Below, piece by piece: positions 9,756 to 36,690 of a stretch of 64,000 nucleotides of DNA. This DNA comes from Candidatus Kaiserbacteria bacterium (GTDB taxonomy: Bacteria > Patescibacteriota > Minisyncoccia > Phycocordibacterales > UBA2100). The notes below the pieces were generated by a model. That model ran no database searches, was not told the origin of the DNA, and saw only the letters and a list, made by a program, of their open reading frames with translations. The stretch is from positions 4,025 to 68,024 of the forward strand of contig JALWOZ010000012.1 of the NCBI GenBank assembly GCA_027083345.1. The letters are read 5' to 3'. The translations under genes and the position numbers were made by a program. Position 1 is the first letter of the stretch, and every line of letters starts with the position of its first letter.

Positions 9756-10958
9756 CTAGTAATTCTTCAACTGATTGGCGTAAGTATGTGTACGCATCTT
9801 CTCTAATGCTTTGGCCTCTATTTGCCTTATACGCTCGCGAGTAACACCAAAAACTTTACCCACCTCCTCTAATGTATGACATACTCCATCTTCTATACCA
9901 TTACGCAATTCTAATATTTTACGCTCTTTAGGAGAGAGTTCGTTAAGTACCTCTTGTAAATGATTATTTAATATTCTCTTGGCTGCACCTCTATCTGGAG
10001 ACTCTATTGAGTCATCAGTTTGAAATGACCCTAAAGTACTCTTAGTACCATCATCATCGTTACCAACAGGAGCCTCTAAAGACAAAGTCATTTGATTTAT
10101 CTTTTGTATATGGTAAACCTTCTCTACCTCTAAGCCCATCTCAACTGCTACCTCTTCAGCCAAAGGTTCTCTACCCAAATGCTGACTAAGTTCACGCAGT
10201 TTTTGTTTATATTTAGCTATAGTCTCTACCATGTGTACAGGAATACGTATAGTACGACTCTGGTCTGCTAAAGCGCGTGTAATAGCTTGACGAATCCACC
10301 AAGTCGCATATGTAGAGAATTTATAACCTTTTTTATAATCAAACTTATCAACAGCTTTAAAAAGCCCCAAATTTCCCTCTTGTATGAGGTCTAGTAAAGT
10401 AAGATCAGGAGACCTGTTTGCGTACTTCTTAGCTATAGATACTACTAATCTGAGATTGGATCGTGCTAAAAGATTGCGAGCCTCATCATCTCCCGTCTCA
10501 ATCCTCTTAGCCAGCCTCACTTCATCTGCTGCCGTAAGTAGAGGATATTGCCCTATCTCTCTTAAATACATTTGTACAGAGTCTCCACTACCATCACGCC
10601 CTTTTAATCTTTTACTCTCAAGTACAGCATCTGTCTCGGTGTCCTCACCTAACATACTACCACTCTCCAAAACATCTATACCAGCTATCTGAAAGTCGTC
10701 ATATAATTGTTCTAAAAACGAAACATCATCTTCTATAGTAGGGAAATCGTGGAGTATCTCATCGTAAGTAATATATCCTCTATTCTTACCCTTTGTCAAT
10801 ATCGCATTCTTGCGAACCTTTTTGTCTTTCTCAGTCAACCTTTTTGGACGAGTTATTACCTTTTTCTTATCAGACTTCTTTGCTGTAGCCTTTACACCCT
10901 TCTTAGCAATGCGAGTTTTCTTTTTTGTGTTTTTTGTATTTGTTTTTTTTACTGCCAT
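9756..10958 (-). CDS. rpoD: RNA polymerase sigma-70 factor RpoD with a lysine-rich N-terminal extension.
   Basis: It contains [41 protein letters not shown] (region 2) and region 4. The start was placed at the ATG for MAVKK at 10958; the ORF track extends to a TTG at 10982. Confidence 0.9.
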
Positions 10959-11068
10959 ATCATAAAATAGCTTATACTGCAAATAAAGTGCTATTACGCG
11001 CCACTATAACGTGCTTGTCAAGCTTTTGCAAGTAAATAAGCGCTAAAACTGTGTTTAACCCACTAACA

Positions 11069-12775
11069 TTATTTTAATGACTCTAGTGCGGAATTAACTT
11101 GCACTATTTGCTTATTTAATTCCTCAACTCTAGCATTATCTCCCTCTACTTCAGCTTTGTGTAACTCTTGCATAAGACTGAGCCTCTTTGACCTAAGGGT
11201 AGACTGCTGTAAATAATCGAGCCTCTCTGCCACAACAGCCTGCACAGACGCATTATTAGTATACATATCCTCCACATAAGATATATCACCATCATTGAGG
11301 TTCTCGACTACTGACTCATAATCCTTCTTATCTACTAATGCTAAAATTCTACTCCTTATTGCCTCAACATCTATAGCCTTATCGTCTAATGTCTCCTGCC
11401 ACGAGATTATAGATGCCAACATATACAGTGGACTAAAATGCTTTTTGTAATCTACACTCCTGGTCGGAGATAAAATCTGACGCTCCTCATTAGGTAAATG
11501 GATATTTGACAAAGTTAGCGTTACAGCAGATTCTGATGCTCCTATTTTGCCTGCCACCAATTTTATAAAATGTTCTTGGTCTATCTTACTCTGCACTCGC
11601 GCCACAAAAGGCAAGACAACCTCCTCTACTTTCTTTTTAAACTTCCTATCGTCTTCTGCATATTTATCTTTATATAAATCCAATAAAAATTCTATTATAT
11701 GCTTAGACTGTTTAACTAACTTTTTCCACTCTTCTTTACCGTCTTTATCTTTTAATAGATCCGCAGGATCTTGTCCTAACCCTAAACGCAAAACTTTAAC
11801 ATCAAAACCATTTTGCATTGCAATTATTGCGCTACGACCTGTAGCCTTTATACCTGCCTCATCTGCATCTAATGCTAAAATAAGATTCTTAGACATCCTT
11901 TTGAGTAAATTACAGTGCTCTACCGTTAAAGCTGTACCAGATATTGCTACAGTATTACAATATCCTGTTTGATGACATGCAATAAGATCCATCTGACCCT
12001 CTACCAAGATAGTAAAGTCATTCTTACGTATGCTTTGTTTAGCCATATCAAAACCATACAACACCTTAGACTTATTATATAACTCTGTCTCTGGGGAGTT
12101 AATATACTTAGCCACCTTATCGTCTTTATTACCAAATATACGCCCAGAGAAAGCAACAACCCTACCTGCAGAATCTCGTATAGGAAACATAATACGAGAA
12201 CGGAATCTATCATAATAACCTTTATCACCTTTAATAATGAGCCCAACCTTCTCTACAATAGTCTTATTATGCCCAGCTACCTCAAGAATATTCTCTACTG
12301 CGTGCCAATTATCTGGAGCAAACCCTATCTGAAAATGGCTAACAGTCTCTGCACTAAACCCTCTATCTTTGAGATAAGTCATAACCTCTTTGTTATCCTG
12401 TAATCTCTGATAATAAAACTCCGATGCGCTGGCCATACACTCAAACATCTGTTCCCTCTCCTCTACCTCCTCTTTACTCTTTTTAGGTCCATCATATTTA
12501 ATTTCTACTCCAGCCTTTTCGGCTAAGATTTTCAACGCACCTTTAAAATCTACTCCCTCCATATTCTCTATAAAAGTGAATATATCTCCATGCTCTCCAC
12601 AACCAAAGCAGTGGTAACTCTGGCGTGCAGGTGAGACAGTAAAAGATGGTGAACGTTCTGAGTGAAAGGGGCACCGCGCCTTCATATTAGCACCTGCGCG
12701 CTGTAAGGTAATATATTCGGATATTAAATCCACTATATCAATCCTATCTTTAATCTGTTCTACAGTTGAACTCAT
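11069..12775 (-). CDS. dnaG: DNA primase DnaG.
   Basis: It has the CHC2 zinc finger CPFHSERSPSFTVSPARQSYHCFGCGEHGD and a TOPRIM region (LVEGQMDL, DADEAG). Classic dnaG-rpoD synteny is present. Confidence 0.9.
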   Translation of the reverse strand: MSSTVEQIKDRIDIVDLISEYITLQRAGANMKARCPFHSERSPSFTVSPARQSYHCFGCGEHGDIFTFIENMEGVDFKGALKILAEKAGVEIKYDGPKKSKEEVEEREQMFECMASASEFYYQRLQDNKEVMTYLKDRGFSAETVSHFQIGFAPDNWHAVENILEVAGHNKTIVEKVGLIIKGDKGYYDRFRSRIMFPIRDSAGRVVAFSGRIFGNKDDKVAKYINSPETELYNKSKVLYGFDMAKQSIRKNDFTILVEGQMDLIACHQTGYCNTVAISGTALTVEHCNLLKRMSKNLILALDADEAGIKATGRSAIIAMQNGFDVKVLRLGLGQDPADLLKDKDGKEEWKKLVKQSKHIIEFLLDLYKDKYAEDDRKFKKKVEEVVLPFVARVQSKIDQEHFIKLVAGKIGASESAVTLTLSNIHLPNEERQILSPTRSVDYKKHFSPLYMLASIISWQETLDDKAIDVEAIRSRILALVDKKDYESVVENLNDGDISYVEDMYTNNASVQAVVAERLDYLQQSTLRSKRLSLMQELHKAEVEGDNARVEELNKQIVQVNSALESLK

Positions 12776-12812
12776 TTATACTTAGTATACCACGATGTTT
12801 TTTGCTTGCTAT

Positions 12813-13574
12813 TTATTGCCGTAGGTGCTCTTTTATATTATTTATAAGATTTATTCTATCATCTTTATTTGAAAAATTATGGTCTCCAGATAATTCCACA
12901 TAATTAATATTAGGTATGTGCTTATATTCATCAAATTCTTCACCATTACCAACTATTTGATCATTAAGTGGCTTAAATATAGTGACTTTAGATTTATTGG
13001 CCAAAGTAGTTAGGTCCTCTTTTATATTATATTCACTTAACTCAGACCAAAACTGTGGGCCAAGCTTTTGTACCTTACCAGAAGTACGTGGGTATGTTGT
13101 TATACCACTCTTGTCTACTATGCCTCCTTTACTTAAAATCCTCTGCTCTAACCTATCGGCTATATTTTGTAACTCTAAATTTGTTATACCTGTAAATATA
13201 ATCTTGTTTATACTATTAGGGTTAAATATTGTAGTAATGACAGTACCCATTGAGTGTGCTAATATATTAATAGATTTAACTGGGTACAACCTCCTAGCAT
13301 ACTCTACGACACTTTCAAGATCTTTAGCTGACTTATGTATACTATAGTCTTGCTCAGGACCTCCCGACTTGCCACAGCCAGATTGGTCAAAACGTAACAA
13401 TAAATAAGAGTCTTCAAGAGAATCTGCTATCTCGGCAAATAAATGGGTACCCTCTCCCTTATCTGTACCAAAACCGTGTACAAATATGATTAGATTCTCC
13501 GCATTCTCATTACCTTGTATAACAGTATCTAACTCCTCTTTATGTGTATTCTCAATTTTTACTCTCTTAAACAT
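12813..13574 (-). CDS. Alpha/beta-fold hydrolase.
   Basis: It has FVHGFG and the GxSxG nucleophile elbow AHSMG. Confidence 0.5.
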   Translation of the reverse strand: MFKRVKIENTHKEELDTVIQGNENAENLIIFVHGFGTDKGEGTHLFAEIADSLEDSYLLLRFDQSGCGKSGGPEQDYSIHKSAKDLESVVEYARRLYPVKSINILAHSMGTVITTIFNPNSINKIIFTGITNLELQNIADRLEQRILSKGGIVDKSGITTYPRTSGKVQKLGPQFWSELSEYNIKEDLTTLANKSKVTIFKPLNDQIVGNGEEFDEYKHIPNINYVELSGDHNFSNKDDRINLINNIKEHLRQ

Positions 13575-22062: not shown

Positions 22063-22839
22063 ATGGTTTATCAGTTTAGTATACCTCGCTCGGATATTTG
22101 GGTGAGCATTTTTGATCCCAGTTACGGGGTCAAGATTGATCGCAAAAATTTTGATACCTTCCGACCAATTGCGGCAAAACTACCTAAGTGGGTCAAGCAT
22201 CTGTATATGCCGAAACCTACGCAATTCAACGCAAAAGTCGTTGAGCCTCCCGACTTTTGGGAGAGCTTCAATGTAGGGAGGGTCAAGGTGCATCAAGGCG
22301 TACTCGCTGACGGGTGCATTATACCGCCCAAAAGCGCCTTCGCCGTGACCTCGGCCGATTGCCCAACAATCGTTGCCTATGGCAACGATATTAACGGCCA
22401 TTTGCAGGTTGTCGCGGCGCACGCCGGGCGCGACAGCTTGGTAAAAGGCACTGACATCATGTCTATGTCAGACAAGAGTGTAGTCGCAAATGCTGTGGGC
22501 AAACTGACATCGGCTGGTGTGCCTGCAAAAAAAGTGCATATGCACATTTACTGTGGCATCCGAACGGGGTTTACTCACCCGCTGGATCACCCCCAGTATG
22601 GAGCGAAGAACCGGAGGCTCTTTGTGTATGCAAATATGTACAAAGGAGCTATTCGCAACGAAGAGACTTGCGAGATTGACCTCTATGAGCTCATTAGGGG
22701 TCAGGCCATGGACTGTGATGTGCTGCCCAAAAATGTCGTATTTGACGACGTTGACACCGGCGCGGACAAGCGCTGGGCAAGTACCAGTCGTGAGCCCGGC
22801 ACAGACAAGAGGAATCTTGTCATCGTGTGCCGAGGATGA
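22063..22839 (+). CDS. YfiH/PgeF (Cu-oxidase_4/DUF152)-like protein; compositionally foreign (GC-rich).
   Basis: VTSADCPTIVAY (T-A-D-C-x-P) followed by AAHAGRDS (like HAGWRG) are present. There is a strong SD (aaaggag) 7 nt upstream. GC is markedly above the local background by eye. Confidence 0.4.
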   Translation: MVYQFSIPRSDIWVSIFDPSYGVKIDRKNFDTFRPIAAKLPKWVKHLYMPKPTQFNAKVVEPPDFWESFNVGRVKVHQGVLADGCIIPPKSAFAVTSADCPTIVAYGNDINGHLQVVAAHAGRDSLVKGTDIMSMSDKSVVANAVGKLTSAGVPAKKVHMHIYCGIRTGFTHPLDHPQYGAKNRRLFVYANMYKGAIRNEETCEIDLYELIRGQAMDCDVLPKNVVFDDVDTGADKRWASTSREPGTDKRNLVIVCRG

Positions 22840-22883: not shown

Positions 22884-22957
22884 TACGCGTACCAGGATTC
22901 GAACCTGGGACCTCATCAGTATCAGTGATGCGCTCTAACCAACTGAGCTATACGCGT
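22884..22957 (-). tRNA. tRNA-Ile (anticodon GAT).
   Basis: Manual fold: acceptor ACGCGTA/TACGCGT, D-arm GCTC/GAGC, anticodon stem CATCA/TGATG with loop CTGATAC, T-arm CCAGG-TTCGAAT-CCTGG. Confidence 0.75.
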
Positions 22958-28684: not shown

Positions 28685-29576
28685 ATTGCAATAATGAAGG
28701 TTATCATCTTGCGTTCCCACGTAGCAAACGGTTTTCCCGTACTACGCGAGTCCAATAGTTCACTGATTCATACTTTGCTTAAAAGTACGAATCTTTTCAA
28801 TACCTTTTGGTGTCAGATGCTTACCTTGGCTAACCAAGTCTGCAATCTGACAAAAGATTTTGAAGCTTCTACCTTTAGAGGTAGTCTGCAGTTTATGCTT
28901 TTTGAAAAATGGAATCAGTGTTGACTCTATATCTCTCCAAGCACTTACAGTGTATCTATAACACTGAGTGTGATTTTTACGTTGTTCTTTTTGAAAATAT
29001 ACATTGCCACAATTAAGGGTTTTGCATATTCTATCTAGTATTCCTTTGTCTTTTGCTTGTAATTTTAAGTGAAAGTGCAACTGCACCTTATATCCACTTT
29101 TATAAGCTTTTGACTTAACAATACTGACATAAAAACAACCTTCACCATCAGTGATACCAACAATGTAATCTGCTGATACTATCGGTTTCGTCCTTCCCAT
29201 GCTACTTATTATAACATAACTTGCTATAATTAGATTGACGCATGGTACTACGACTCAGCTGACTTCTCATAACTTCTGACAAAACCTTTTCGGTGTCATG
29301 AGATCTCCCTGGGTCACTCTACATACCATTCTAAACATCCAACTACGACTTTTATCGTATACTTCTTCAATACCCACCAGAGTGAATCGTATACGTCGTT
29401 TTGATTATCATGTATTGCTACATGGAAGGCTGTTCTTCGCTACTTAGACCCTTCAGACGCTCTCTCGCGAGACGCGTCCTGTCTTTTCACTACGCTTATC
29501 TTACAACCGGTTGACTATAAGTAAGGGATTGATTTTAACAATCTGGCATTTTGTAGAGCTGCCAGGCACAGTTATT
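28685..29576 (-). mobile_element. Intervening sequence (intron-like) inside the 16S gene that carries a homing-endonuclease ORF.
   Basis: 16S collinearity with E. coli is broken after ...CCGCCCGTC on one side and resumes at GTACTCACA on the other. The insert is AT/GC-mixed and encodes a LAGLIDADG protein in the same orientation as the rRNA. The group I versus other class was not determined, and the boundaries are accurate to about 2 nt. Confidence 0.7.
28760..29200 (-). CDS. LAGLIDADG-family homing endonuclease (single-motif type).
   Basis: IVGITDGEGCFYVSI is a canonical LAGLIDADG motif. The 146-aa size fits homodimeric I-CreI-like enzymes. It is located inside the rRNA insertion. Confidence 0.75.
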   Translation of the reverse strand: MGRTKPIVSADYIVGITDGEGCFYVSIVKSKAYKSGYKVQLHFHLKLQAKDKGILDRICKTLNCGNVYFQKEQRKNHTQCYRYTVSAWRDIESTLIPFFKKHKLQTTSKGRSFKIFCQIADLVSQGKHLTPKGIEKIRTFKQSMNQ

Positions 29577-31008
29577 TGTGAGTACAAGGCTCGAGAACGT
29601 ATTCACCGTGACTTGCTGATTCACGATTACTAGCGATTCCGACTTCATGAGGTCGAGTTGCAGACCTCAATCCGAACTTGGGCTACTTTTAGGGATTTGC
29701 TCCAGCTTACGCCATCGCGCCCCTCTGTAGTAACCATTGTAGCGTGTGTGCAGCCCGGGATGTCAAAGGGACATGCTGACTTGGCGTCATCCTCACCTTC
29801 CTCCCCCGTGAGGGGGCAGTCTCGCCTGACAAATATAACAGGCAACGAGGGTTGCGTTCGTTACCCCACTTAAGGGAACAATTCAAACCACGAACTGACG
29901 ACAGCCATGCATCACCTGCCTAACACCCTCGAAGGAACCTATCTTTCAATAGGCGTGCAGTTAGGTTTCAAACCCCGGTAAGGTTTTCCGTTTAGCTACG
30001 AATTAAGCCACGCGCTCCACCGCTTGTGCGAGCCCCCGTCTATTCCTTTGAGTTTTAAACTTGCGTTCGTACTACCCAGGCGGTCCGTTTAACGCGTTAG
30101 CTACGTCTCAGAGAGGGTCGATGCTCCCTAAAACTAACGGACAGCGTTTAGGCCTAGGACTACTGGGGTATCTAATCCCATTCGCTACCCTAGGTTTCGT
30201 GTCTCAGCGTCAGGAGTGGTCCAGTGTGTTGCCTTCGCTTTTGGTGTTCCCCAAGATATCAACGGATTTCACCCCTACACCTTGAGTTCCACACACCTCT
30301 ACCATCCTCTAGTGTTGCCGTTTCGCTCGCCTTCCCGGGGTTAGGCCCCGGACTTTAACAAACGACTAACAACACCGCCTACACACCCTTTACGCCCAGT
30401 GAATCCGGGTAACGCTTGAGGCTCACGTATTACCGCTCCTGCTGGCACGTGATTAGGAGCCCCTTATTCATGAGGTAACGTCAATAAACTTCCTCCCTCA
30501 TAAAAGGTATTTACGCACCGAAGTGCTTCATCTACCACGCGGCATCGCACCGTCACACTTTCGTGCATTGCGGATGATTCTCGACTGCAGCCTCCCGTAG
30601 GAGTTTGGACCGTGTCTAAGTTCCAATGGTGGGGGTCAGGCTCTCACCTCCCCTAAGCGTCGTAGCCTTGGTAAGCCATTACCTTACCAACAAGCTGATA
30701 CTAAGCAGGCCGCTCCATAAGCGATAAATCTTTCCTCTTGCGAGATATCGTGTATTATCCTGGATTTCTCCAGGTTATTCACGACTTATGGGTACGTTCC
30801 TACCTGTTACTACCCCGTTTGCCATGGGTCTAACCCATTCGACTTGCATGCCTTATCCATGCCGCCAGCGTTCACCCTGAGCTAGGATCAAACTCTAATT
30901 AAAAAGTGAACGAAACAAAAGAAAATACAATCTTTTGATATCGTGGTTGTTACTGATTCTTTTAAAACGTAATGTTTTGTGTAGTTTAAACTTTTCTAAA
31001 CAAAAAGA

Positions 31009-32658: not shown

Positions 32659-34005
32659 TTATGATTTAAATCCATTACTGAATAATTTCTTCACCCAGCC
32701 CTTATTCTCATAGTCTCCGATAGCCAACAAGAATATACGAGTGACTATAATAGCCGTAAACATTGACACAACAACACCAATACCAAATACGAGTGCAAAT
32801 CCTTTAACCAAGCTTGTACCAAACCAAAAGAGTATTATAGCAGTGATGATGCTACTTAAGTTACCATCTCGTATAGAGAGCCACGCACGCTTAAAGGCAG
32901 ATAGCATAGCATTATGCAACCACGTACCTTGCTCTTGTAATTCCTCTTTAAGACGCTCAAATATTAGCACATTTGCGTCCACTGCAAGGCCGATAGATAA
33001 TATAAATCCAGCGATACCAGCTGCTGTGAGTGTAACGGGTAAGAGTTTAAATATTGCAAGCATAATCGCTATATATGTACCAAGTGAAATTGTAGCAATA
33101 ATTCCTGGCACACGATACCAAACAATCAAGAAGAGCGCTACAAAGGCAAGCCCCCAAACTCCAGCAAAAGTCCCTCTCTCAACAGCGTCTGCTCCTAAGC
33201 TAGCTCCAATGGTTTGGGCACTAAGCAAATCTATACTAACTGGTAATGCTCCGTAATTAAGATTGCGCACAAGTTCTCGTGCCTCCACAGGAGTAAAACC
33301 TCCACTGACTGTTGCCTGCCCACCCGGTATCTCCTCTCGTATAACCGGAGTACTTATAGGAGACCCATCTAAAAATATACCCATTACCACCCCGATATTC
33401 TCTTTAGTAAGTTTAGCAAAAAGCTTGCTACCCTCTGAATTAAACTGCAAACTGACTATAGGCTCATTAGCTAGGGCACCTCTACCATTACCAAATTGCA
33501 AAGTTGCTCTCTTTAAATATTTACCTGTCAAGCCAGTACTTTGCCAAGCATTTAATTTTTGTACTTTGCCATCTTTACTCTTAGCCTCAACTGACCTAGC
33601 CAACTTAAACTCTAATACGGGAGTCTTACCTATCATTTTTATAGCCTGCTGAGTATCAGTAATACCAGGTAACTCAACAATAAGCCTATCTTGACCTCCA
33701 CTCTTTTGTGTCTGTACAAGTGGCTCTGCTACACCAAACACATTTACTCTGCGCTCTATAGTATCTCGCAAGGCCTGCATTGAGCTAATACGGTCTGCTT
33801 TTGGTAATGTCTCAGTATTAGCCTTATATAAAAGTAGTGTACCTCCAGATAGGTCTAAGCCAAGCTTAAAAGGATGCGTAGCCGAAGTAGTAGTTGCCTG
33901 TCCGTCAATAGTGGCCACTTGTGGCAATTCACTAGAATATACAAACCAACCAATGCCAAATCCAGCAACAAGTAACATTAGAGCAATAATCCGTGTCTTT
34001 AACAT
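32659..34005 (-). CDS. secD: Protein-export membrane protein SecD.
   Basis: LGLDLSGGTLLLY and the C-terminal TM bundle are present. The start was placed at MLKTRII; the track ORF extends upstream to 34053. Confidence 0.85.
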   Translation of the reverse strand: MLKTRIIALMLLVAGFGIGWFVYSSELPQVATIDGQATTTSATHPFKLGLDLSGGTLLLYKANTETLPKADRISSMQALRDTIERRVNVFGVAEPLVQTQKSGGQDRLIVELPGITDTQQAIKMIGKTPVLEFKLARSVEAKSKDGKVQKLNAWQSTGLTGKYLKRATLQFGNGRGALANEPIVSLQFNSEGSKLFAKLTKENIGVVMGIFLDGSPISTPVIREEIPGGQATVSGGFTPVEARELVRNLNYGALPVSIDLLSAQTIGASLGADAVERGTFAGVWGLAFVALFLIVWYRVPGIIATISLGTYIAIMLAIFKLLPVTLTAAGIAGFILSIGLAVDANVLIFERLKEELQEQGTWLHNAMLSAFKRAWLSIRDGNLSSIITAIILFWFGTSLVKGFALVFGIGVVVSMFTAIIVTRIFLLAIGDYENKGWVKKLFSNGFKS

Positions 34006-34137
34006 TGTGAGGTAGTATATAACCAGGCAAAGATAAAAGCAAATTACTTGCAAAACAAAAACCCCTCAGGCACCAAGACTAATCAAAAAGATTAATCAAA
34101 GTGCCCAAGGGGCAAAAGCCTAATGATTGGTTAGACT

Positions 34138-34851
34138 TTACTTAAGTTGTGGGTTTATGTTGCACGAGAACGCACAACTCCCGATACTCCAACATTCGCC
34201 ATCAGGAATATACGCACTCACTTCCCATCTTCGCAATACACCTCTCCAGCGTACATTAACAGAGAAGATCTCGTTATGGACTCCACGAACATAGAAGATA
34301 TTCCAGTTGCCATTAGTAACGAAAACCGCAGTTCTTCCGTTTTGTTGTTCATCAATCATATAGGCAAGATACGTACAGAAACTGTAAGTATCTTCAAAGA
34401 CATGGTTATTCGGCATTTCCTCTCGAATCTCTGTGTCATCAGCATCTTTTGTGAGACAATAAATTACAATAGTCGCCGATGGTACAGACCCCTGCAACTC
34501 TATAGCCCGTAGTATCTTATCATTGAAATCATCTGATACATATAACCCATTACGAGTCTTGAAGTACCTATATATATTTGGGTTAAAACTAGCCATCCTG
34601 GTTGGCAGTGTAAACTCACTACTACGTTCAAGAGCGCTTTTGGTTATTGAGACTTTTACCTTTCCGGACAGATAGTCCCTAACTGACTGCTCACCACCAA
34701 GTTTTTTAACCAGCGCGTTGAGCTGGCCTACGGTGGGATTTTTCGAAGCAAAATTTGTTATAACATTTCTCCTTGGGCTTCTTTGCCAATTTGACACATC
34801 TAAACCGAGGCAGGTACTGCTCCCACAATGGTCACAGCAATAAAACACCAA
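34138..34851 (-). CDS. Hypothetical protein in a compositionally atypical (GC-elevated) island. The N-terminus is Cys-rich (CCDHCGSSTC).
   Basis: It is a 237-codon ORF with elevated GC. No family was recognised and the start is uncertain. Confidence 0.35.
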   Translation of the reverse strand: MVFYCCDHCGSSTCLGLDVSNWQRSPRRNVITNFASKNPTVGQLNALVKKLGGEQSVRDYLSGKVKVSITKSALERSSEFTLPTRMASFNPNIYRYFKTRNGLYVSDDFNDKILRAIELQGSVPSATIVIYCLTKDADDTEIREEMPNNHVFEDTYSFCTYLAYMIDEQQNGRTAVFVTNGNWNIFYVRGVHNEIFSVNVRWRGVLRRWEVSAYIPDGECWSIGSCAFSCNINPQLK

Positions 34852-34970
34852 TTAATTATATTGGCATCTCTTTGCCATGACCATTTATTTACAACTTATT
34901 ATAAAGGAACTATGACAATCTATACTACAGATACTAAACTGTGTCCAGTTTTGACTGTTGTCGGCGCCAT

Positions 34971-35008
34971 AAAAAAGTCCCTCAATGCACTTAGTGTACG
35001 TAAGGGAC
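34971..35008 (-). terminator. Hairpin terminator after the 200-aa island gene: gtccct-N20-agggac followed by T6 on the minus strand.
   Basis: The inverted repeat plus the aaaaaa run (T-run on the minus strand) are visible. Confidence 0.5.
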
Positions 35009-35038
35009 AAAGGTTCTAAGGTTCAAAGAACTTAGTTC

Positions 35039-35641
35039 TTAGCGACCAAGTTCCTGTTGCGGTACAACCACACGATGACGATCGCCGGCATCCCAGACAC
35101 CGTCGTTCTCGAAGCGATACGTGCACACCTTGAGCTCATCAGAGTCCACGTAGGCATCCGCTACAAACGGAACATCTTCAACCACCAACAGGAAGAAGGT
35201 ACAGTAACCGCCCTGCCGAAGCTTGTCGCGGTGCTCGCGACAAAAATCGATAATCTGCCCCTGTGTAAGGCACAGATCTTTAATTTTGCCGAGAGAGCCA
35301 AACACTTCGCCAAATGTGGCGTTTTTGTTCAACTCTCGCACCTCAACTGGCGCGGCTTTCGTAGCCACACCAGATGACTTGTCTATGCCCCATTCTTTGA
35401 AATCTGGGTCCAGCCATCCGGTGAAGACATCACCGGCATCTGCAATAGTCTCGGTGCCATCCGTTGCACCGACCATGATCACTTCGTCGCCATAAAGGCG
35501 ACGAAGAATCTTTGGTTGAATCAAATCCTGAATTGCCTCTGAAACCGCATCGGGGTCAAGCAATCCTTCACGCACTCTCCAAAACGCATCTGCTTGTTGC
35601 CGTGCGAATCTGCCCAGCACTTCGTCTGATACTTTTTGCAT
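35039..35641 (-). CDS. Hypothetical protein, strongly GC-rich relative to the genome and preceded by an SD-like GAGGA.
   Basis: It is a 200-codon ORF. Its composition is about 20 percentage points above background by eye. No family was recognised. Confidence 0.4.
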   Translation of the reverse strand: MQKVSDEVLGRFARQQADAFWRVREGLLDPDAVSEAIQDLIQPKILRRLYGDEVIMVGATDGTETIADAGDVFTGWLDPDFKEWGIDKSSGVATKAAPVEVRELNKNATFGEVFGSLGKIKDLCLTQGQIIDFCREHRDKLRQGGYCTFFLLVVEDVPFVADAYVDSDELKVCTYRFENDGVWDAGDRHRVVVPQQELGR

Positions 35642-35853
35642 CTGACTATCCTCTTCAGTTTCGCTGTTGAAATTCTAACTCCGCCAACATGACTTCGCCA
35701 CAGCGTAAGATGTTCCTCACACATGAACACATTACGCTACGGCGAAGTTACTGCAAATTAAGCACTTATTAACCTTATTTGTAAAAGGACGAAACTGTTA
35801 AGTTAGTAACATAATATTAGCCTGAAGTCAAGTTCCTACTTAACTAAGTTGCT

Positions 35854-36690
35854 TTAATTCTGTTGTCTTTTCCACTCGTACATAGTTAAAGCTGCAGCTA
35901 CTGATACATTTAGTGACTCTACTCCATTTTGCATTGGTATATGCACTAAGAAGTCGCACTTCTCTTTGGCTATTCTGCTAAGACCACTGCCCTCTGCCCC
36001 TACAACCAACACAGTCTTAGCATCAAACTCTTGCTCCCACATACTCTTGCTAACTTTTTGCCCCGAGTAACGCTCGGGACGATTGTCTGAGAACAATCGG
36101 ATATTCTCTCCTGGTTCAGCATCACTCTCGACTAAGTCTACGCCATATGTCCAGAAGCCTAAGCTCTTAAGCTTCTCTAATGTGTTACTTATATTTGCCA
36201 CCTGCACTATGGGCACCTTCGTAACCACCCCAGCTGAGGTCTTAAACACTGTAGCATTCACCGGCGCTTGGCTAGCATTGGCAACAAATACCGCACTGAC
36301 TCCCGCGGCGCCAGCCGAGCGCACTATTGCTCCGAAGTTTTGCGGATCCTCTATCTTATCAAGTACCAGCACCAGCTCCTTACCTCTCTTCTTGGCTTTG
36401 ATCAGAGCAAGCCAATTCTTAAAATCTAGATATTTAAAAGCTGTCAACTTTGCCATCACCCTTTGTGTGCGCACCTCACCCACTAGTGCCTCAGCCTCTT
36501 TCTTGCTTATATACCGCGTTGGAATCTTAGCACGCTTAACGGAATTAATTATCCCTGCAAAATCATGCTTATCCCTCTGAGTAAAGTCTACAAATACTAC
36601 CTCAGAGACATCTTTAGGCTTGCTACTGAGCAACTCTGCAACGGCATTTTTACCATAAACATAAAATCCATTATTCTTATTGCTGTTCAT
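35854..36690 (-). CDS. rlmB: TrmH/SpoU-family rRNA 2'-O-methyltransferase (RlmB-like).
   Basis: SpoU motifs LVLDKIEDPQNFGAIVRSAGAAG and VGAEGSGLS...ESLNVSVAAA are present, together with an N-terminal substrate-binding domain. Confidence 0.75.
   Translation of the reverse strand: MNSNKNNGFYVYGKNAVAELLSSKPKDVSEVVFVDFTQRDKHDFAGIINSVKRAKIPTRYISKKEAEALVGEVRTQRVMAKLTAFKYLDFKNWLALIKAKKRGKELVLVLDKIEDPQNFGAIVRSAGAAGVSAVFVANASQAPVNATVFKTSAGVVTKVPIVQVANISNTLEKLKSLGFWTYGVDLVESDAEPGENIRLFSDNRPERYSGQKVSKSMWEQEFDAKTVLVVGAEGSGLSRIAKEKCDFLVHIPMQNGVESLNVSVAAALTMYEWKRQQN

Follow-up and report, generated by a model that had tools for sequence, protein, structure and literature searches.

A window of 64,000 nucleotides from a Candidatus Kaiserbacteria bacterium (contig JALWOZ010000012.1; all positions are those of this 64-kb window) carries two small open reading frames (ORFs) between secD and rlmB. 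These two genes, ORF A and ORF B, very probably represent a paralogous pair of variable-protein genes of the kind rewritten by diversity-generating retroelements (DGRs), present here without the retroelement. ORF A would have been diversified until recently or be served in trans, and ORF B has most likely been retired. The pair is classified as DGR targets because of the genomic context of its homologues, which was the decisive evidence. The pair thus belongs to a system of a familiar type, in which it is either stranded or served from a distance. It does not constitute an island for toxins or defence, and a foreign origin is not demonstrable. An initial annotation had described the region as a GC-elevated island of two same-strand genes between secD and rlmB, and both genes do lie on the minus strand between these two. 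ORFs, coordinates, and base composition were counted within the window, the latter for its set of 49 long ORFs.

35039–35641, minus strand: ORF A, 200 aa from ATG, A-type member of the Patescibacteria DGR variable-protein family
34138–34797, minus strand: ORF B, 219 aa from the GTG at 34797, B-type member of the same superfamily as ORF A
34138–34851, minus strand: long form of ORF B, 237 aa from the TTG at 34851, the first TTG
32659–34053, minus strand: secD, flanking the pair
35854–36690, minus strand: rlmB, flanking the pair

Two Paralogues of an Unannotated Superfamily

Neither protein gave a usable match in Pfam, NCBIfam, PADLOC, or PHROGs, in agreement with the initial annotation, which had recognized no family for either of them, and a Pfam scan of all 120 aligned relatives of both families was without a match as well. 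For ORF A, 32 homologues were found with 41–56% identity (E 1e-23 to 1e-46). The word-seeded search returned only two homologues of ORF B, and the full profile search retrieved 1,426 cluster representatives at E ≤ 1e-3 (superfamily clusters counted at 50% identity), nearly all of them approximately 200 aa long. When the two families were aligned to each other with hhalign, a probability of 97.3% and an E-value of 2.1e-11 were obtained over 173 collinear columns, which makes ORF A and ORF B divergent paralogues within a single superfamily, a homology that had been missed at first reading. The family hidden Markov model (HMM) scored ORF A at 260 bits and ORF B at 244 bits, and these were exactly the two members found in the window. 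No signal peptide or transmembrane segment was found in either protein. Taken as a whole, the family is a large, Pfam-less group of small soluble proteins that is restricted to Patescibacteria. The domain also occurs in tandem repeats within one large protein, as the B-type profile matched a protein of 926 aa (P0046) in five separate stretches.

The start site of ORF B is disputed, with public gene calls placing it at the GTG at 34797 (219 aa, P0033) or giving a product of 236 aa. In the alignment of three ORF B sequences, the only other relative starts at residue 33, and in the profile search the relatives align best from position 3 of the 219-aa form at the earliest, mostly from position 14 or later. 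A promoter-like TATAAT ends at 34855, 4 nt before the TTG at 34851 that opens the long form. The Cys-rich N-terminus CCDHCGSSTC, which had been highlighted as a feature of this protein, is present in the letters but belongs to the unconserved extension and is probably an artefact of extending the ORF.

Retroelements Beside the Relatives

The genomic context was examined in 79 loci from GTDB species representatives and 80 metagenome loci, which together make 159 loci with 177 full-length family genes. The titles of the GTDB loci are mostly those of Patescibacteria (Paceibacterota, Nomura-, Kaiser-, Moran-, Falkow-, and Yonathbacteria), and some carry automated ‘Saccharibacteria’ or ‘Gammaproteobacteria’ labels. 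ORF A matched the A-type protein P0006 (E 1e-40) and ORF B the B-type protein P0034 (E 5.5e-31), both of which come with a variable region (VR), a template repeat (TR), Avd, and a reverse transcriptase (RT). A short way downstream of each of the two genes come a bAvd gene and a reverse transcriptase of the RVT_1 type, and the final stretch of approximately 118 nt of each gene is repeated 453–490 nt downstream. Within the core of this repeat, all mismatches fall at an adenine of the downstream copy. Such adenine-only mismatches between a VR in the gene and a TR downstream of it are the hallmark of DGRs.

The same arrangement was found throughout the family. A local TR accompanied 80 of the 177 genes, with a median downstream offset of 441 nt, and 1,105 of 1,128 TR–VR mismatches were located on TR adenines. 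Ordinary duplication was considered as a source of these repeats and rejected, since its mismatches would lack an adenine bias and 98% were observed at adenines. Among the 79 GTDB loci, the RT was present in 36 and Avd in 41, and RT and Avd queries in tblastn found homologues in 64–79 of all 159 loci. The cassette usually runs in the order target, TR, Avd (on the opposite strand), and RT, with the VR formed by the last ~40 codons of the family gene. These relatives bear out the earlier expectation that ORF A and ORF B are no ordinary housekeeping genes; they are accessory genes linked to a mobile element, the DGR.

Several cassettes hold more than one target. The compound loci L101 and L066 hold first an A-type target and then a B-type one, each accompanied by a separate TR, and in L115, L117, and L147 two A-type targets stand in tandem before one TR. 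The layout of the window pair, with A, a short spacer, and B on one strand, resembles the target part of these five compound cassettes, minus the machinery. An A–A tandem was also found at L079, a bare locus. In L066 (5809–9914) and L101 (2944–6646) the two target types share one reverse transcriptase, and L066 has two Avd genes. L001 is the Campbellbacteria locus from which the word-seeded search drew its closest homologue of ORF B. There (10424–13393), genes for a type IV pilus/type II secretion system ATPase and platform protein start within the DGR reverse transcriptase gene or immediately behind it.

Variable Regions and Codon Signature

Both window genes end in a segment that corresponds to the VR of their relatives.

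35057–35173, minus strand: VR-like segment of ORF A, residues 157–195, VPFVADAYVDSDELKVCTYRFENDGVWDAGDRHRVVVPQ, aligning to the VRs of live loci
34159–34272, minus strand: VR-like segment of ORF B, EIFSVNVRWRGVLRRWEVSAYIPDGECWSIGSCAFSCN, with decayed signature

Adenine mutagenesis spares the third base of AAY codons, and diversified codons therefore stay NNY. The last 50 codons of all A-type genes were aligned, and columns with AAC or AAT in at least 60% of the TRs were taken as variable, which gave ten columns. At these, NNY accounted for 96% of the codons in cassette-linked genes and for 95% in bare genes, compared with 58% at the other columns. ORF A carries GAT TAC GAC AAG TGC TAT AAC GGT GAT GAT at the ten positions, so that 9 of 10 codons are NNY versus 19 of 38 elsewhere. 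On these modest statistics, ORF A looks recently diversified or still targetable.

For the B type, eight variable columns were set from three live loci, whose VRs are NNY in 24 of 24 cases. ORF B reads AAT CGC AGA GAA AGT TAT GAA AGT at these columns, which amounts to 5 of 8 NNY versus 25 of 44 elsewhere. The codons that break the rule (AGA, GAA, and GAA) end in A, and AAY-templated mutagenesis cannot yield them. Because the signature has been lost and the GC content is near-native, ORF B is most likely an older, retired target that now encodes a binding protein of fixed sequence, again as far as modest statistics can tell.

A different account would give the family a core function that is independent of DGRs, with window copies of fixed sequence that were never diversified and DGRs that merely captured some members. 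It would fit the very large size of the family, with its 1,426 clusters for the B type, and the observation that about half of the well-flanked loci lack any DGR part (28 of the 57 with at least 5 kb on each side). However, the bare copies hold NNY at 95% in exactly the columns in which the TRs have AAY, against 58% elsewhere, and this is hard to obtain without templated adenine mutagenesis in the past. ORF A shares the NNY excess, and both ORFs keep an element in the VR flank that is absent after TRs. We regard the never-diversified account as quite improbable and prefer the account of DGR targets parted from their retroelement.

A Structured Element in the 3′ Flank

The following elements were located downstream of the two genes.

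35005–35036, minus strand: CTTWG-like array just 3′ of the ORF A stop, with CTAAG, CTTTG, CTTAG, CTTTG, and CTTAC at 8-nt spacing
34971–35008, minus strand: terminator-like hairpin and T-run after ORF A, GTCCCT...AGGGAC, −22.4 kcal/mol, z −2.5
34060–34113, minus strand: long terminator hairpin after ORF B, with a CCCCTTGG/CTTTG motif in the 5′ arm, followed by a T-rich tail

The terminator between the two ORFs had been noticed before, and its hairpin and T-run were recovered on the minus strand. The much stronger hairpin of ORF B itself had been overlooked; it folds with −42.3 kcal/mol (z −7.4), none of 200 shuffles folded as well, and its inner stem is listed as terminator-like. The array behind ORF A contains three exact CTTWG copies at 8-nt spacing. 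In the ~90 nt that follow the stop codons of 157 family genes (loci L013–L171), CTTWG reached a density of 2.03 per 90 nt. The controls were far lower, with densities of 0.11 both upstream and on the opposite strand, 0.19 behind TRs, and 0.31 in shuffled sequences. The spacing peaked at 8 nt, the dominant value with 89 spacings, and had harmonics at 16 and 24 nt. Bare copies (2.03 units) and cassette-linked copies (2.04) were alike in this respect. In the family flanks that were inspected, the array continues into a TCCCT...AGGGA-type hairpin with a T-run, and the 3′ flanks of the family are strongly structured in general (mean z −4.2 to −4.5, with 89–94% below −2). Both window ORFs have this structured flank, which is VR-specific and common to a remote target (L071) and its cassette copy (L056).

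A hairpin after the VR is a known target-recognition feature of DGRs. The combination of CTTWG array and hairpin may be a signal for target recognition, and it may equally be part of an ordinary or unusual terminator. The DGR literature examined made no mention of an 8-nt CTTWG array, with no search aimed at the array itself. A (G/A)TATAAT or GTATACT box stands right after the terminator T-run in L026, L013, L017, L016, L042, and L155, and the flank of ORF A is without such a box. The TATAAT-like box after the T-run may be the promoter of the TR RNA.

Search for the Retroelement

Within the window, tblastn with two Patescibacteria DGR reverse transcriptases found no RT (best match E 2.7), and two Patescibacteria Avds found no Avd (best match E 0.054 over 26 residues). 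For the TR, every position on both strands was scored as ‘same base or A’ against each VR, a procedure that reached 118/118 and 119/119 in the positive controls. Written as a pattern of ‘each base or A’, the VR of ORF A (coding strand of 35057–35168) is WWWRWARMRRAWRMMWAMRWRRAMWMWRAWRARMWMAARRWRWRMAMRWAWMRMWWMRARAAMRAMRRWRWMWRRRAWRMMRRMRAWMRWMAWMRWRWRRWWRWAMMRMAAM. No A-compatible TR for either VR was found in the window or in the flanks L010 and L012, with the best non-self scores at background level. Likewise, the repeat search of the whole window gave no TR/VR-type repeat involving ORF A or ORF B, and the stretch of about 10 kb past the 3′ end of the window, available from a second assembly (L010), contained no RT, Avd, or TR. 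The pair leaves no space for a TR, since the spacer between the two genes measures 187–241 nt and 84 nt separate the stop of ORF B from secD.

The absence of a cassette nearby raises the question of whether ORF A, and perhaps ORF B as well, is still live as a remote target, with a VR that would be rewritten in trans by a DGR cassette elsewhere in the genome. Remote DGR targets are known from the literature (PMC5758913), and the family itself offers an example of remote use. The bare locus L071 and the cassette locus L056 lie on different contigs of one metagenome-assembled genome (MAG), the VR of L071 differs from the TR of L056 at TR adenines with one exception, and more than 40 nt of its 3′ flank are shared with the cassette-linked VR of L056. 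From such sequences, it appears that bare copies can be live, L071 being served by the L056 cassette on another contig. Bare copies in general also keep NNY (95% vs. 96%) and CTTWG units (2.03 vs. 2.04) as strongly as cassette-linked ones, and ORF A, with 9 of 10 NNY codons and an intact 3′ element, conforms to this pattern. On the other hand, neither a TR nor an RT was present in the 64 kb plus ~10 kb that were covered, and three variable-column codons of ORF B end in A, which is beyond AAY-templated mutagenesis. Moreover, no close paralogue of ORF A or ORF B was found in the protein collection, including the Logan and ENA assemblies of this sample; the best non-self identities there were 50% for ORF A and 41% for ORF B. 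Altogether, we consider remote service at present quite possible, if short of probable.

Base Composition and the Question of Foreign Origin

With a GC content of 0.517, ORF A ranks at the top of the 49 long ORFs (mean 0.394, sd 0.048). ORF B, at 0.417, is 13th of 49 and thus about 0.5 sd above the mean, which is near-native, and the claim that it is GC-elevated did not hold. The sharp departure from the flanking genes described earlier could be confirmed for ORF A only, and housekeeping genes of the same window reach similar values, with 0.48 for ClpB, 0.47 for ArgRS, 0.447 for rlmB, and 0.52 for the 16S gene region. Going by ClpB, ArgRS, and the 16S region, the genome in this window is compositionally patchy. 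Across the family, the genes have a mean GC content of 0.506 compared with 0.403 in their flanks, and in 99% of the 79 loci, whether bare or with a cassette, the GC content of the gene was above that of its flanks; for three B-type genes, the lead over their own loci was 4–9 GC points. The high GC content of ORF A is therefore a property of the family and not a mark of recent import. The excess of about 10 points spans the whole family gene and not the VR alone (loci L013–L091). For annotation, this means that high GC in genes of this family should be taken as a family trait instead of a sign of recent transfer.

The initial annotation had interpreted the locus as a small foreign island that may carry a toxin/immunity, defence, or host-interaction function. 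A recently imported toxin/immunity or anti-phage defence pair would be in line with the top GC rank of ORF A, with the lack of an annotated family for either protein, and with two short neighboring genes on one strand that each have a terminator. Toxin–antitoxin and defence islands indeed resemble the pair in that they hold small unannotated genes side by side, of which one stands out in composition. In contrast to such islands, the two proteins are paralogues and not complementary partners, and 80 of 177 relatives are DGR targets. The PADLOC scan that had been proposed gave a single fragment for ORF B (E 0.039) with no passing stretch and nothing for ORF A. Furthermore, the GC excess is family-wide, ORF B is native in composition, and the whole-window repeat search and the feature scans showed neither repeats nor an integrase or tRNA at the borders of the pair. 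Import as a toxin or defence pair is hardly credible on this evidence. Of the functions suggested at the outset, only host interaction stays plausible, together with ligand binding, as this is the presumed role of DGR variable proteins.

Proposed Course of Events and Its Weight

Returning to a pair of DGR targets parted from the retroelement, the established DGR mechanism would imply that a TR RNA is reverse-transcribed with adenine-specific errors and that the mutated cDNA replaces the VR. This replacement would randomize approximately ten AAY-encoded residues, which in the structural model lie on two adjacent β-strands and the next loop and probably form a ligand-binding face. DGR variable proteins are thought to act in ligand binding or host interaction. 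ORF A may have passed through such cycles until recently, or a cassette at another place in the genome may still serve it in trans. ORF B, with its signature lost and its GC content near-native, would most likely have left the cycle and become a binder of fixed sequence.

Several points weigh against this explanation. TR, RT, and Avd are all absent for this pair in the 64 kb and the ~10 kb on the 3′ side, which means that membership rests on homology and signatures, and a cassette elsewhere in the genome was neither found nor excluded by a search of this extent, with a best relative of 52% identity in the metagenome collection. The chance probability of 9 NNY codons out of 10 in ORF A is only about 0.01–0.04. 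The non-NNY codons of ORF B could stem from a TR with other codons, considering that only three live B-type loci define its columns. Finally, the fold is without a detectable relative in the PDB and BFVD by Foldseek.

A more far-reaching proposal can be formulated at the level of the superfamily. Its more than 1,400 clusters might constitute an unrecognized DGR scaffold with variable residues on a β-hairpin face, the CTTWG array and hairpin might be a cis signal for rewriting in trans, and the window pair might consist of live receptors and not of relics. We consider this combination rather unlikely. Nonetheless, what had appeared as two hypothetical proteins in a GC island becomes a testable case of DGR targets parted from their retroelement. 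Roughly half of the family is equally bare, and whether such copies are served in trans or retired bears on the hypervariable repertoire that is actually in play in these tiny, host-dependent bacteria. Two leads follow at the family level, namely a domain predicted with high confidence but without a structural relative, which would be a minimal C-type-lectin variant or a new scaffold, and a periodic, conserved element in the 3′ flank by which DGRs of the candidate phyla radiation (CPR) type could recognize their targets. Together with the frequent bare copies, fold and array are of more interest than the pair itself.

Locus Layout and Neighboring Features

Two further features were recorded upstream of the genes.

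35649–35653, minus strand: GAGGA Shine-Dalgarno motif of ORF A, read from the sequence, 7 nt 5′ of the ATG
34855–34883, minus strand: promoter-like site 5′ of ORF B, TGGTCA-17-TATAAT, 10/12 consensus match

The Shine-Dalgarno motif is the one assigned to the 200-aa ORF in the initial annotation. The number of promoter-like sites equals the expectation from shuffles, and the TGGTCA-17-TATAAT of ORF B is called from its consensus match only. Conserved synteny was considered for the family and rejected: L022, L084, and L141 lie near orf268-rodA/ftsW and L014 and L022 near secD, and these 4 of 159 loci are approximately what was estimated to occur by chance in small genomes.

Elsewhere in the window, the ORF at 22063–22839 (plus strand) has the second-highest GC content (0.511) and adjoins a tRNA at 22884–22957; its sole match is a sub-threshold one to Cu-oxidase_4 (YfiH-like). 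The 16S rRNA gene occupies 29522–30903 on the minus strand, and only 1,382 nt match the full Rfam model. About 220 nt downstream of it, a match to group II intron domains D1–D4 was found at 29190–29301 (minus strand), and the adjoining ORF at 28760–29200 (minus strand) encodes a LAGLIDADG endonuclease (E 1e-21). A 23S rRNA was not detected within the window. Approximately 8–10 kb past the 3′ end, the second assembly of the same population (L010) has a large serine recombinase at 153–1820 with Resolvase, Recombinase, and Zn-ribbon domains. This gene adjoins a protein kinase gene and an SMC-like ATPase gene, and the group is possibly a mobile element near the contig end.

Predicted Structure and Comparison with Known Systems

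AlphaFold models of both proteins were obtained with high predicted local distance difference test (pLDDT) values of 92.6 for ORF A and 90.0 for ORF B, and in both a helical segment at the N-terminus precedes a domain of ~110 residues. The domain of ORF A is composed of a strand (97–104), three helices (110–115, 120–123, and 127–136), and four strands (148–154, 157–166, 169–176, and 190–194), of which the last three are spanned by the VR. Of the variable residues, 162/164/166 and 171/173/175 occupy alternating positions of two neighboring predicted strands, and 179, 181, 184, and 187 lie in the next loop. W183 and the final RVVVP strand are invariant. Foldseek searches against the PDB and BFVD gave no match at E ≤ 1e-3 (best E 0.37–0.64), and there was neither a sequence match to any PDB chain nor one to Pfam models of the FGE-sulfatase/DUF1566 type.

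Certain DGR variable proteins, such as Mtd of the Bordetella phage, TvpA of Treponema, and the nanoarchaeal AvpA, fold as C-type lectins (CLec), with a core of the order β-α-α-β-β-β-β, an aromatic residue that stays constant, and a last strand that does not vary, for which the 3′ end of the VR codes (PMC5006420). The window family shares with them a VR placed C-terminally in the gene, a set of ~10 variable residues with AAY templates, an aromatic residue within the VR that does not vary (W183/F177), the last non-variable strand (RVVVP) from the 3′ end of the VR, and a hairpin downstream of the VR, and the predicted order of elements in the ORF A domain agrees with the published core (PMC5006420). 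It differs in that its domain is compact (~110 aa) and has no inserts, and in that six variable residues of ORF A alternate on two regular β-strands. There is also no detectable match in sequence or structure, and CLec membership is thus no more than a possibility. The fold is left unassigned, with a minimal CLec variant estimated as somewhat more likely than a new scaffold.

With regard to the position of the genes, remote and non-adjacent DGR targets are documented (PMC5758913), and the DGR of Treponema denticola is cited there with seven scattered targets. Remote targets more than 100 kb away were reported for one non-CPR lineage only (Wu et al., PMC5758913). The window pair is comparable to the Treponema denticola case, as a target-type gene with VR and 3′ recognition flank lies far from any RT, and the family has its own example in L071 and L056. 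Unlike in these cases, no cognate TR was located for the window pair, for which remote service is a possibility.

The closest comparison is with the targets of CPR DGRs, which lack recognizable domains (PMC8144416, PMC5758913). Like the targets of ‘clade 2’ in Roux et al. 2021 (PMC8144416) and the ‘unknown VR’ classes UVR1–6 of Wu et al. 2018 (PMC5758913), the present family is restricted to Patescibacteria and comprises small proteins without a transmembrane segment, signal peptide, or recognizable domain; its cassette likewise contains Avd and RT, and its VR class is not assignable to CLec or Ig. The window copies differ from these targets in standing without a cassette. Considering these similarities, the two window genes belong to the CPR/Patescibacteria DGR target group, an assignment that applies at the level of the group and not of a specific UVR class.

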